Sequence record: OR544956 | Direction: 5' to 3' (one strand) | Length of the DNA: 64,000 bases | Source of the DNA: Escherichia phage vB_EcoM_EP57 | In this document: positions 53,397 through 55,515 of the stretch, one piece after another | Numbering within the stretch: position 1 is the stretch's first letter | How the letters are laid out: each line of letters begins with the position of its first letter | Position numbers and translations under genes: made by a program | The notes under the pieces: model-generated | The model's input: the letters and a program-made list of their open reading frames with translations, nothing else | The model's database searches: none | What the model was told of the DNA's origin: nothing

Positions 53397-53553
53397 GTTT
53401 TATTCAATAGATAGCAAAAAGCCTCCAATAAGGAGGCTAATAAATACTGTTAAGTTGAAATGCTTTATTATAATTGTGCGTTAAGGAGTCGCACCCCTCC
53501 ATCTTAGAAGGAACCAGGCAAGGTCTTCAAAGATACCGCTGGCAAGCGATATT

Positions 53554-53632
53554 TGGAGGCGGGAATTGGATTTGAACCAATGATCTCCAGCATATGAAAC
53601 TGGCGAGGACGACCAGACTCCTCTATCCCGCT
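53554..53632 (-). tRNA. tRNA with anticodon CAT (Met or Ile2)
   Basis: Manual fold: T-arm ATTGG-TTCAAAT-CCAAT, anticodon loop TTCATAT, CCA encoded; 1-72 is an A-C mismatch. Confidence 0.55.
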
Positions 53633-53638
53633 ATTATG

Positions 53639-53708
53639 TATCCCGTGCTGGATTCGAACCAGCATCACAATAAGCTGTGGAACTCTTATCCTGTAAGTCT
53701 AACGGGAA
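53639..53708 (-). tRNA. tRNA-like element, unassigned (anticodon arm cannot be folded; possibly degenerate)
   Basis: Good T-arm GCTGG-TTCGAAT-CCAGC and acceptor pairing, but only about 70 nt. Confidence 0.3.
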
Positions 53709-53710
53709 AC

Positions 53711-53784
53711 TGGTTGTTTCGACAAGAATCGAACTTGTGTCTCACGATTATCAGTCGTGGGTTCTACCATTGAACTACGAAACA
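53711..53784 (-). tRNA. tRNA-Ile (anticodon GAT)
   Basis: Perfect acceptor, T-arm and anticodon stem; loop CTGATAA; CCA encoded. Confidence 0.7.
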
Positions 53785-53790
53785 TTAAAT

Positions 53791-53867
53791 TGGTCGGAAT
53801 TGCAGGATTCGAACCTGCGACCCTACGCTCCCAAAGCGTATGCTCTACCAAACTGAGCTAAATTCCG
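53791..53867 (-). tRNA. tRNA-Pro (anticodon TGG)
   Basis: Perfect cloverleaf; anticodon loop TTTGGGA; CCA encoded. Confidence 0.7.
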
Positions 53868-53960
53868 TCATAACATTCTAAAGGTACACCGCAAAAGAAA
53901 GTGTTCGGCGGCTCCTCGTTTTTAACTTCACACTTGAGGTAGTGACTCACCTTTGTTATA

Positions 53961-54036
53961 TGGCTGGTCTGTCTGGATTTGAACCAAACCTACGACAGTC
54001 AAAGTGTCGTGTGCTACCGGACTACACTACAAACCA
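53961..54036 (-). tRNA. tRNA-Gln (anticodon TTG)
   Basis: Cloverleaf with anticodon loop CTTTGAC; CCA encoded. Confidence 0.65.
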
Positions 54037-54134
54037 ATAAATCATTTAATGAAGGGCAACCAGAAGAGGTGTGAGAGAAGGAGAAAACCATGAGTAAAAG
54101 AGAAAGTTTTCTGGCAACCCTTTATTAAATAATT

Positions 54135-54208
54135 TGGAGCGTTCTACGAGGATCGAACTCGTGCCGCCGACTTGGAAGGACGGAATGCTACCGCTACACC
54201 AAGAACGC
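54135..54208 (-). tRNA. tRNA-Gly (anticodon TCC)
   Basis: Acceptor GCGTTCT/AGAACGC, anticodon loop CTTCCAA; one mismatch in the anticodon stem. Confidence 0.55.
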
Positions 54209-54219
54209 CCTACATCTTT

Positions 54220-54249
54220 ACTATACTACATTTTACTATTGGTTGTCAA
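54220..54249 (-). promoter_or_regulatory. tRNA-operon promoter 1 (CTATTGACAA-18-TATAGT)
   Basis: Minus strand; -10 ends about 11 nt before the tRNA-Gly 5' end. Confidence 0.55.
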
Positions 54250-54524
54250 TAGTTTTATTGAGTGGGACAGTGACGAGTATCCCGTTGGGTGACTAGCCCT
54301 ACGTTCGGTAAGCTAACTTAAAATAATACAAAACCAAAGTCAAATATTATTCTTCGTTGCTGTCGATGGGAGAGCCGCTTCTCATTTTGCCCCATCCAAC
54401 CCTACTCCGGTCAAGTTTCGGGTAACTCTTTTTGTGTGATCAACACAATACTAAGAACACTGTCTTTCGAACAGACCTTGTGCACAGGATACGACGATCA
54501 ATCACAGTGCTCTTAATGTTGTGT

Positions 54525-54599
54525 TGGTGCTCCCACACTGAATCGAACAGAGATCCACGGATTACAAAACCGTTGTAATAGCCATTATACTATAGGAGC
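54525..54599 (-). tRNA. tRNA-Thr (anticodon TGT)
   Basis: Anticodon loop TTTGTAA; minor stem mismatches. Confidence 0.5.
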
Positions 54600-54605
54600 A
54601 AAGCT

Positions 54606-54682
54606 GGGACTCGGCAGGATTCGATACCTGCAATTCCAGAAGCCTCTTGGCGACTGGGGGTTTACCTTAACTCTACAAGTCC
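54606..54682 (-). tRNA. tRNA-like element, unassigned (T-arm near-identical to tRNA-Pro but with an 8-nt loop; no foldable anticodon arm)
   Basis: gcaggattcgatacctgc versus gcaggattcgaacctgc in tRNA-Pro. Confidence 0.3.
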
Positions 54683-54689
54683 ATAATTC

Positions 54690-54775
54690 TGGCGATGAGT
54701 ATAGGATTTGAACCTATATCGTTCTTTCGAACACGGATTAACAGTCCGCCGCTTAAACCATTCAGCCAACTCATC
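54690..54775 (-). tRNA. Class II (long variable arm) tRNA with anticodon GTT
   Basis: Perfect acceptor GATGAGT/ACTCATC, T-arm ATAGG-TTCAAAT-CCTAT, extra arm GTTC-GAAA-GAAC, anticodon loop CTGTTAA. Confidence 0.45.
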
Positions 54776-54781
54776 TTAATT

Positions 54782-54869
54782 TGGTGGTGAGTGATGGAGT
54801 TGAACCACCCGAATCGCAATGATAACAGATTTACAGTCTGCCCCGCTACCCCTACGGAATTAACTCACC
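54782..54869 (-). tRNA. tRNA-Tyr (anticodon GTA), class II
   Basis: Anticodon arm CAGA-CTGTAAA-TCTG as in E. coli tRNA-Tyr; 88 nt. Confidence 0.6.
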
Positions 54870-54947
54870 TAAATACTAATATTTAAATTCTTTTTAAAAT
54901 AGCCAGTGTTCACACCACTAACTATGTAAGCCATATTAAAAAGAACT

Positions 54948-55033
54948 TGGCGGTAGATGTAGGACTCGAACCTACACGCCGTTTCCGACTACAGTTTAGC
55001 AAACTGTCGTGGCTACCATTTCACCAATCTACC
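54948..55033 (-). tRNA. tRNA-Ser (anticodon GCT), class II
   Basis: Anticodon arm ACAGT-TTGCTAA-ACTGT; long variable arm. Confidence 0.65.
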
Positions 55034-55038
55034 TAATC

Positions 55039-55129
55039 TGGCGGAAGGAGGGAGAGTCGAACTCCCAAGGCTCTTTCAAGCTCGGCGGTTTTCAAGACCG
55101 TTTTCGTCGCCACGTCGATTTGCCCTTCC
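55039..55129 (-). tRNA. tRNA-Ser (anticodon TGA), class II
   Basis: Anticodon loop CTTGAAA; long variable arm; 91 nt. Confidence 0.55.
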
Positions 55130-55137
55130 ATACTTAT

Positions 55138-55167
55138 AATCTAACATAAAATAATGTTTGTTGTCAA
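55138..55167 (-). promoter_or_regulatory. tRNA-operon promoter 2 (CTATTGACAA-18-TAGATT)
   Basis: Minus strand; -10 ends about 9 nt before the tRNA-Ser(TGA) 5' end. Confidence 0.5.
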
Positions 55168-55363
55168 TAGTTTTTTAAAACATTTTACCATGAATGGTGA
55201 CTCCACCAACCCCCGTTCTCCACGAACGGTGCTCTTCGAGCATTTATGTCTTCTAATATAACCGTGGCCTTTGTTTATAATGTCTGACATACTTGCCTCA
55301 TTCTCTGCCACCATGATCAGTAGTGGGTTCAAATTACTTGAGCTAATTCATGTTAAAATGTTC

Positions 55364-55438
55364 TGGTGTCTTTACAAGGAATCGAACCTTGACTAAGAGT
55401 TTAGAAGACTCCTGTGCTATCCATTACACCATAAAGAC
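55364..55438 (-). tRNA. tRNA-Arg (anticodon TCT)
   Basis: Anticodon loop CTTCTAA; acceptor GTCTTTA/TAAAGAC. Confidence 0.6.
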
Positions 55439-55440
55439 GT

Positions 55441-55515
55441 TGGTGGCCCTGGCTGGTTTCGATCCAGCTACCTATCGGTTATGAGCCGACAGCTCTCCCA
55501 TTGAGCTACAGGGCC
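55441..55515 (-). tRNA. tRNA with anticodon CAT (Met or Ile2), second copy
   Basis: Acceptor GGCCCTG/CAGGGCC, D-stem GCTC/GAGC, anticodon loop CTCATAA. Confidence 0.6.

Follow-up and report, generated by a model that had tools for sequence, protein, structure and literature searches.

A class II tRNA-Asn(GUU) gene in an Escherichia phage and its virus-enriched family

Long variable arms in bacteria are restricted to tRNA-Leu, -Ser, -Tyr and -Sec (PMC9976931; textbooks likewise). In this study, we analysed a tRNA gene with an asparagine anticodon and a long variable arm at 54690..54775, minus strand, of a 64,000-nucleotide (nt) stretch of Escherichia phage vB_EcoM_EP57 (record OR544956), hereafter the window. 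The analysis confirmed that this is a genuine phage tRNA gene of class II shape, whose extra arm is structurally conserved across a family of tRNA-Asn genes enriched in viruses. Judged from its sequence, the product is probably a functional phage-encoded tRNA-Asn with a short GNRA-capped extra arm, charged by the host asparaginyl-tRNA synthetase (AsnRS) and reading AAC and AAU. The gene has already been annotated as tRNA-Asn in many GenBank records and its existence is not new; annotation pipelines label such genes tRNA-Asn without flagging their architecture. What is apparently new to description is the class II architecture of tRNA-Asn, together with its conservation and viral enrichment. 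No description of a phage class II tRNA-Asn was found in the literature searched, which lacked most subscription journals, and an earlier one may exist, for example in old T5-group tRNA sequencing papers. A conserved viral class II tRNA-Asn that carries Asn identity elements would mean that the class I/class II split is not fixed by isotype, and would provide a natural test of extra-arm tolerance by a class IIb synthetase such as AsnRS.

ARAGORN calls the minus strand of 54690-54775 as tRNA-Asn (gtt) of 86 nt, Rfam RF00005 matches it over model positions 1-71/71 with 62 bits (gathering threshold 29, E = 3.4e-12), and in a 99%-identical relative the same gene was annotated tRNA-Asn-GTT by tRNAscan-SE. 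The 86 nt consist of an 83-nt tRNA and an encoded CCA (54690-54692), and a five-arm cloverleaf is the minimum-free-energy fold of the gene sequence by itself. Read 5' to 3' on the minus strand, to which all parts of the gene given here belong, the arm parse gives GAUGAGU, UG, the D arm GCUGAAUGGUUUAAGC (54751..54766, also from the relatives' alignment), G26 with the anticodon stem-loop (G-GCGGA-CUGUUAA-UCCGU, 18 nt, 54733..54750), a variable region of 15 nt (54718..54732, arm parse and minimum-free-energy fold), the T arm AUAGG-UUCAAAU-CCUAU (54701..54717, Rfam alignment and arm parse), ACUCAUC, the discriminator G73 (54693, arm parse) and CCA. The variable region comprises the extra arm GUUC-GAAA-GAAC (54721-54732) and, 3' of it, three nt that do not pair (GAU). 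Within the anticodon loop CUGUUAA (54738-54744), both the Rfam alignment and the arm parse set the anticodon GUU (positions 34-36) at 54740..54742, the Rfam model placing CU-GUU-AA in the loop and handling 12 nt of the variable region as an insertion.

The gene thus has the features of a tRNA, namely an acceptor stem of 7 base pairs (bp), a 5-bp T stem with a UUCRANY-type loop, a 5-bp anticodon stem with a 7-nt loop (arm parse and fold), U33 and G18 G19, and its 15-nt variable region with a paired stem-loop exceeds the 10 nt above which a tRNA is counted as class II. The D arm is of the class II kind as well (3-bp stem, 13/22 unpaired, enlarged loop): three pairs (G10-C25, C11-G24, U12-A23), G13 and A22 opposed, and a long loop with G18 G19. 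A fourth D-stem pair is possible in the Asn genes of phages phi92 and GreteKellenberger, the D stem varying among relatives. An initial annotation, made from the letters alone, had described an 86-nt tRNA at these exact coordinates, with its acceptor stem, T arm, GTTC-GAAA-GAAC extra arm, class II shape and anticodon GTT from a CTGTTAA loop, and ARAGORN, Rfam, the arm parse and the fold bear all of this out; the covariance model of Rfam places no other triplet at 34-36 and assigns no class I structure.

Conservation and viral enrichment of the extra arm

A BLAST search with the 86-nt gene as query matched 715 phage records, 225 of them colinear over at least 80% of the query, so that a colinear copy is present in no fewer than 225 GenBank phage genomes; these fall in four named groups, Stephanstirmvirinae, Vequintavirinae, Demerecviridae and a T4-like Klebsiella phage. 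Representatives were fetched from phi92 (Justusliebigvirus), two Epseptimavirus, a Proteus Novosibvirus, a Klebsiella Mydovirus, a Salmonella Seunavirus and the T4-like Klebsiella phage, and each has a tRNA-Asn(GUU) of 82-86 nt. The design is thus common to eight lineages of enterobacterial phages. In an alignment of seven sequences from seven phage lineages, with 24 base pairs, 99.4% of cells form standard pairs and 16/24 pairs have changed on both sides. In the extra arm, compensatory change is seen at each of the four pairs, with pairing at 100%, and this falls to 30-48% when the 3' partners are slid by 1-3 columns. The extra-arm stems vary in sequence and pair in every case, reading GUUC/GAAC, GAAC/GUUC, AUCC/GGAU, GUC/GAC, GAGC/GCUC, GAGU/ACUC and GUCA/UGAC. 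A covariance model built from seven sequences matched every tRNA (524 matches), which mixed isotypes in the resulting alignment; it was set aside and the arms were parsed directly.

Such genes were sought more widely with a pattern that joined a GTT anticodon loop to a T arm across a spacer of class II length. Among the first 120 matches in IMG/VR, 101 were called by ARAGORN as tRNA-Asn(gtt) of 79-94 nt, with very diverse sequences; in a collection of bacterial and archaeal genomes 9/120 matches were such tRNAs and 96/120 were not tRNAs. Three or four of the nine cellular matches lie in dense phage-like tRNA arrays on contigs of metagenome-assembled genomes (MAGs), three are solitary, and two are archaeal and probably intron-containing. 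These loci form a small sample chosen by the same pattern and were rejected as a cellular baseline, a scan of bulk metagenomes being used instead, and the class ratio was taken from a spacer range that admits class I and class II alike. Viral contigs gave 95 class I and 11 class II Asn loci, and bulk metagenome contigs 95 and 1 (odds ratio 11, Fisher p = 0.006). Roughly 10% of viral tRNA-Asn genes are therefore class II, compared with 1% in bulk metagenomes, which is an enrichment of about tenfold in viruses. As a side observation, extra-arm tRNAs on three GTDB MAG contigs (L149, L160, L208) and in two metagenome loci (L386, L463) stand within arrays of 8-31 mixed-isotype tRNAs over a few kb, and these look like tRNA arrays of phages that were binned into MAGs.

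The hairpin is kept in this wider set. In a non-redundant set of 96 viral class II Asn genes, the variable region has a longest contiguous stem of 3.51 bp on average, compared with 2.84 +/- 0.07 bp after shuffling (z = 9.2; 0/300 shuffles reach the observed mean). The 86 genes with a stem of at least 3 bp hold 61 distinct stems, each position shows all six types of pair, and most loops are of the GNRA kind. The retention of a paired, mostly GNRA-capped hairpin through such sequence turnover, with compensatory changes, argues for selection on the structure of the arm and not for decay. In geometry, the arms of the family (0-1 unpaired nt, 3-4 bp, a loop of about 4 nt, then 3-4 unpaired nt 3') fit those of viral tRNA-Tyr (1 unpaired, 3 bp, loop of 3-4 nt, 3 unpaired), not those of viral tRNA-Ser (1, 4-7 bp, 4-6, 1) or tRNA-Leu (0, 4-6 bp, 4, 1).

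A class I tRNA-Asn(GTT) gene is also present, within the stretch fetched, in 24/91 class II Asn loci, often in tandem and 77-140 nt away. In such dual loci (for example L064, L091, L097, L080 and L024) the anticodon stems usually differ, and two class II Asn copies were seen in five IMG/VR loci. The coexistence of both forms fits isodecoder diversification, and also neutral duplication.

It is possible that the arm is a neutral passenger, i.e. a hairpin tolerated in the variable loop that spread by descent and horizontal transfer and brings no advantage. AsnRS, EF-Tu and the ribosome would make no contact with the variable loop, AsnRS identity is limited to the anticodon and position 73, the relation of class I to class II forms looks like an insertion (see below), and extra arms, present at about 5% in many other normally class I isotypes of viral loci, suggest a general tolerance. 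However, a passenger would not be expected to keep a paired GNRA-type hairpin with compensatory change at every pair, to be about tenfold enriched in viruses, or to be retained beside a class I Asn gene in about a quarter of the loci (24/91). We give neutrality real weight, though short of an even chance.

Those other isotypes were surveyed in the viral loci, where 59/1137 normally class I tRNAs (5.2%) have well-formed extra arms. They include Cys, Thr, Met, Ile, Lys, His, Glu, Pro and Trp tRNAs, each with an isotype-appropriate discriminator. Loci that hold a class II Asn gene show such arms at 6.6%, and those with class I Asn only at 2.7% (p = 0.003); in metagenome loci the rate is 2.0% (p = 0.047), and there all four cases lie in dense tRNA arrays. 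This wider pattern across isotypes is suggestive and marginally controlled. Examples in the IMG/VR loci (L009-L128, L249-L355) are a tRNA-Thr (L036), a tRNA-Lys (L080), a tRNA-Cys (L017) and a tRNA-His (L013), and readers of ANN codons (Thr, Met, Ile, Lys) seem over-represented by our tally (31/423 vs 29/891). In another IMG/VR locus (L035), the variable region of an 84-nt tRNA-Met(cat), GTTCGAAAGAACTAT, is nearly identical to that of the window Asn gene, GTTCGAAAGAACGAT, while isotype and the remaining body differ; the likeness could reflect a transferable hairpin module, or convergence on a simple GAAA hairpin.

Identity elements and predicted charging

The identity set of E. coli AsnRS consists of the anticodon GUU and G73, and is transplantable into tRNA-Lys (PMC9976931). 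The window tRNA carries this set whole (G34 U35 U36 and G73), and the 18 nt made up of G26 and the anticodon stem-loop are identical to those of 4/4 E. coli K-12 tRNA-Asn genes, which were taken by coordinates for the comparison; the whole 86-nt query had no BLAST match at E <= 0.01 in a 28-Gb E. coli collection. Class I tRNA-Asn (E. coli asnT/U/V/W, phage T5, Kuttervirus Maynard) have GUU, G73 and encoded CCA in common with it, but their variable region is 4-5 unpaired nt, compared with 15 nt forming a 4-bp stem and tetraloop plus flanking bases in the window tRNA, which also differs in its 3-bp D stem, long D loop and G1-C72 (U1-A72 in E. coli). Tyr identity requires A73 and U35, Leu identity requires A73, and G73 is an antideterminant for both tyrosyl-tRNA synthetase (TyrRS) and leucyl-tRNA synthetase (LeuRS) (PMC9976931). 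The window tRNA lacks both sets: it has G73 where A73 is required, and its anticodon is GUU, not GUA (U35 is present, followed by U36).

The acceptor ends of the 96 viral class II Asn genes were set against those of class I Asn (120 genes), Ser (104), Leu (82) and Tyr (63) from the same loci. G73 is found in 93% (89/96) of class II Asn and 93% of class I Asn, and A73 in 100% of viral Leu (82/82) and 98% of viral Tyr. U1-A72, an Asn hallmark, occurs in 64% of class II Asn, 64% of class I Asn and 0% of Ser. G2-C71 is present in 39% (37/96) of class II Asn vs 93% (97/104) of viral Ser, and A3-U70 in 23% vs 82%. At the end of the acceptor stem the class II family matches class I tRNA-Asn, with the same statistics at 1-72, 2-71 and 3-70, and not Ser, Tyr or Leu. 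The bodies of the tRNAs, with anticodon loop and variable region removed, were also scored with per-isotype profile hidden Markov models, which are home-made and moderately accurate: the Asn profile was best for 39/94 class II Asn bodies and for 14/29 held-out class I Asn, and mean scores of class II Asn were 25.0 bits for Asn, 21.0 for Ser, 21.0 for Tyr and 12.1 for Leu.

Because seryl-tRNA synthetase (SerRS) takes no account of the anticodon and reads the long extra arm and G73, the window tRNA might instead accept serine and insert it at AAC/AAU, a mistranslation or recoding comparable to nev-tRNAs and Candida tRNA-Ser(CAG). Ser identity depends on extra-arm size and on G1-C72 and G2-C71, which are invariant in E. 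coli, with a moderate role of G73; class II tRNAs are discriminated by arm size and number of unpaired bases, and C2-G71 is an anti-SerRS element (PMC9976931). The tRNA-Ser(GCU) of the same phage (54948..55033, minus strand, by ARAGORN, Rfam and arm parse), our comparator for Ser-type features, is likewise 86 nt long with G73, and resembles the window tRNA in its D loop and in an arm of 4 bp capped by GAAA (GUCG-GAAA-CGGC). With tRNA-Ser the window tRNA has in common the long arm, G73, G1-C72, C11-G24 and a class II D arm with G13/A22, and the Ser profile was the best for 15/94 family bodies. However, G73 belongs to the Asn set as well, the conserved G2-C71 is replaced by A2-U71, the anticodon is not that of a Ser tRNA, and the arm has 4 bp with 3 unpaired nt 3', those of viral Ser having mostly 4-7 bp with 1 unpaired nt. 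Across the family, the arm geometry is Tyr-like, G2-C71 and A3-U70 are far less frequent than in Ser, C2-G71 occurs in 42%, and U1-A72 is frequent though absent from Ser. A host-identical anticodon arm is expected under charging by AsnRS and unexplained under charging by SerRS. A serine-inserting tRNA is very improbable.

Other tRNAs of class II shape with anticodons of class I isotypes are nematode nev-tRNAs (PMC3333845) and bacterial or phage allo-tRNAs (PMC5389517). The former are Leu-type bodies mischarged by LeuRS, unlike the window tRNA, and the latter combine an 8/4 or 9/3 acceptor/T branch with Ser-like identity, whereas the window tRNA has the standard 7/5 branch; with this branch and identity elements that match its own anticodon, no recoding is implied. 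The initial annotation had suggested a Ser, Leu or Tyr tRNA whose anticodon has changed identity. As an account of function this does not agree with the complete Asn set, the host-identical anticodon arm, G73, A2-U71, the class I Asn-like acceptor statistics of the family, or the Kuttervirus tRNA-Asn, which looks like the phi92 form minus a 10-nt hairpin. Most likely, then, the window gene encodes a working tRNA-Asn rather than a tRNA for Ser or Tyr whose anticodon has mutated.

Several points weigh against this conclusion. The long arm, G73 and G1-C72 overlap the SerRS identity set, and since the arm of the phage's own tRNA-Ser(GCU) also has 4 bp, some serylation of the window tRNA is conceivable. 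CUGUUAA is the anticodon loop of 95/96 viral class II Asn genes, but in the metagenomic set GUU was imposed by the search pattern, and its conservation there is circular. The body of the window tRNA itself scored 28.9 bits with the Cys profile and 26.7 with Phe, ahead of Asn (26.5), Ser (24.2) and Tyr (23.1), in these home-made models of moderate accuracy. Codon demand speaks weakly in favour of the conclusion: Asn codons are heavily used in the open reading frames of the window (55.6 per 1000), and the comparator was 9 E. coli genes, skewed by one Asn-rich adhesin.

The RNA might also be a tRNA-shaped decoy or regulator that does not take part in translation, for example an inhibitor of Septu or of Retron-Eco7 PtuAB, or a pseudogene. 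Its Tyr-like arm stands beside a real tRNA-Tyr, Septu and PtuAB cut the variable arm of tRNA-Tyr and can both be neutralised by overexpressed tRNAs, the AriB paper raised overexpressed viral tRNAs as possible nuclease inhibitors (PMC12409363), and a degenerate tRNA-like element lies directly downstream. On the other hand, the features needed for translation are intact and conserved (7/5 branch, U33, G18 G19, T loop, CCA, G73 and the CUGUUAA loop), and acceptor statistics that track class I Asn, including U1-A72, fit a constraint from Asn charging that would be needless for a decoy. We regard this as scarcely probable at all.

For a functional tRNA-Asn, the following course is envisaged. The gene would be transcribed along with the rest of a minus-strand tRNA cluster and the transcript processed by host enzymes, the CCA end being already encoded. 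Most likely, the host AsnRS would then charge the tRNA with asparagine through the anticodon GUU and G73, putatively tolerating the extra arm, and the charged tRNA would read AAC and AAU codons during infection.

Purpose and origin of the arm

The variable arm and the anticodon stem of tRNAs are targets of anti-phage nucleases (Retron-Eco7 PtuAB, Septu, PARIS AriB). We speculate that the arm sets the phage copy apart from host tRNA-Asn and leaves untouched the anticodon arm that is read by AsnRS, the ribosome and modification enzymes, and our preferred guess is that this structural difference might permit evasion of host nucleases directed at tRNAs; that the arm is a neutral, tolerated insertion is about as likely. 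PARIS AriB cuts host tRNA-Asn between positions 40 and 41, and T5 tRNA-Asn contributes to rescue (PMC12409363). The tRNA-Asn versions in the PARIS experiments were of the short class I form, both in T5 and in Bas34 (SelmaRatti, a PARIS-sensitive phage whose own tRNA-Asn is a 77-nt class I tRNA), and these experiments are thus silent on the long form. The AriB-site sequence UAAUC|C is unchanged in the window tRNA, so any escape from such nucleases must be by shape.

Known defence-escape tRNAs include T5 tRNA-Lys, -Thr and -Asn against PARIS AriB, and T5 and SP15 tRNA-Tyr against Retron-Eco7 PtuAB and Septu. Like the window tRNA, these are phage isodecoders structurally unlike the host tRNA, and for tRNA-Tyr the determinant is the variable arm. 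They alter an existing anticodon stem or variable arm, whereas in the window tRNA a whole arm is added to an isotype that otherwise has none, and the anticodon arm is identical to that of the host. The class I T5 tRNA-Asn (locus L008, 8953-9030) has a strongly diverged anticodon arm, GCAUC-UUGUUAA-GUUGA, with U30/U40 and G27/A43 mismatches at and near the AriB site, a strategy opposite to a host-identical anticodon arm with an added arm. In phi92, a gene annotated as tRNA-Lys (TTT) (locus L002, 2326-2401) was reported by ARAGORN as 'tRNA-??? anticodon (tt)', which indicates a non-standard anticodon loop, and this anomaly may be relevant since tRNA-Lys is the main target of PrrC and PARIS.

A broader proposal is that extra arms grafted onto normally class I tRNAs are an adaptive viral strategy of which Asn is the most frequent case, and we put this forward tentatively, as rather doubtful. 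If it were true, the phage tRNA would survive tRNA-cutting defences of the host or the phage's own destruction of host tRNAs, its anticodon arm and synthetase identity elements being left intact, and class II shape outside Ser, Leu and Tyr would serve as a hallmark of viruses and open a new axis in the tRNA arms race, going beyond the known case of the tRNA-Tyr variable arm. Class II Asn tRNAs are ready substrates for asking whether tRNA architecture, beyond sequence, plays a role in immune evasion, and orthogonal-tRNA engineering could exploit the naturally tolerated arm as a handle.

As to origin, the arm might have been inherited from a tandem duplicate of tRNA-Tyr(GUA) that acquired A36U and A73G and was captured by AsnRS, an origin compatible with a present-day tRNA-Asn function. 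The tRNA-Tyr(GUA) gene (54782..54869, minus strand, class II, A73; Rfam 39 bits, and annotated by tRNAscan-SE in a relative) adjoins the Asn gene upstream with a gap of 6 nt, and the two genes are also adjacent, 6 nt apart, in phi92. In the window their acceptor stems have 6/7 pairs in common, the most similar of the 66 pairs of cluster tRNAs (median 2/7), and both have variable regions of 15 nt with 3 unpaired nt 3'. The identity sets of the two are two substitutions apart (A36 and A73 in Tyr, U36 and G73 in the window Asn tRNA), G34, U35 and the Q-type GUN anticodon family being common to both, and the Tyr-like arm geometry of the family is unlike Ser or Leu. Yet the D and T arms of the window Tyr and Asn genes are unrelated, the Tyr and Asn acceptor stems of phi92 are unrelated too, and in 33 co-resident pairs the similarity of class II Asn to Tyr (4.3/14 positions) does not exceed that to most other isotypes, its closest co-resident tRNA being class I Asn (6.1/14 positions).

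The sequences of other phages point instead to an insertion into a tRNA-Asn. The class I tRNA-Asn of Kuttervirus Maynard has the variable loop GA-UAG followed by the T stem CAAGG, and the class II tRNA-Asn of phi92 has GA-ACGAAAGUUC-UAG and then CAAGG, with similar D and anticodon arms; the difference is a 10-nt hairpin cleanly inserted between positions 45 and 46. With the window tRNA, too, the Maynard tRNA has its D-arm type and anticodon stem-loop in common, and with phi92 also the T stem and the flanks of the variable loop. Moreover, the Klebsiella Mydovirus Asn gene has the D stem GUUC/GAAC, as does E. coli tRNA-Asn. Tandem duplication of tRNA-Tyr as a general origin was rejected, as no adjacency or arm-similarity signal was found across the 96 genes, and the idea was confined to the lineage of the window, where we consider it unlikely. 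Of the relationship to tRNA-Tyr suggested by the initial annotation, the tRNA-Tyr itself, the shared variable-region length and arm geometry and the 6/7 acceptor pairs stand in the window, but the D and T arms differ and the link is absent in phi92 and family-wide. It may represent lineage-specific shared ancestry or gene conversion.

The tRNA cluster and its surroundings

The source phage is a phAPEC8-like myovirus (Phapecoctavirus, Stephanstirmvirinae), and its 2.3-kb tRNA region is 99.7% identical to those of Escherichia phages nieznany and tuntematon. ARAGORN, Rfam and the annotation of a relative together give a cluster of 12 genes on the minus strand (53554..55515), transcribed in the order CAU tRNA, Arg, Ser(UGA), Ser(GCU), Tyr, Asn, Thr, Gly, Gln, Pro, Ile(GAU) and Met, with CCA encoded in 12/12. 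The CAU tRNA is tRNA-Met according to ARAGORN and tRNA-Ile-CAT in the annotation of the relative ASO2A. At the end of the cluster lies an intrinsic-terminator-like hairpin with a U tract (53420..53438, minus strand), and an equivalent terminator is annotated in a relative.

ARAGORN missed two genes of the cluster. One is the tRNA-Tyr(GUA), though genuine, and the other is tRNA-Ser(UGA) (55039..55129, minus strand, 91 nt including CCA), which was found by arm parse and is annotated tRNA-Ser-TGA in a relative by tRNAscan-SE; only the tRNA-Sec model of Rfam matches it, with 37 bits and below threshold; A27 is mismatched with C43 and the D arm is unusual.

Two spacers of the cluster contain further structures on the minus strand. 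In the 90-nt Asn-Thr spacer, 54607-54682 has a tRNA-like fold (-27.6 kcal/mol, z = -2.0) with a 7-bp acceptor stem (GGACUUG/CGAGUCC) and a T-arm-like hairpin with an 8-nt loop (GCAGG-UAUCGAAU-CCUGC), an aberrant anticodon arm and no D stem. It was called by neither ARAGORN nor Rfam, and might represent the remnant of a tRNA gene or a stable tRNA-like RNA such as those annotated in T5. In the AU-rich spacer between Tyr and Ser(GCU), 54870-54947 forms a long hairpin (-18.1 kcal/mol, z = -3.1, 0/200 shuffles equally stable), which could be a processing or termination element inside the cluster.

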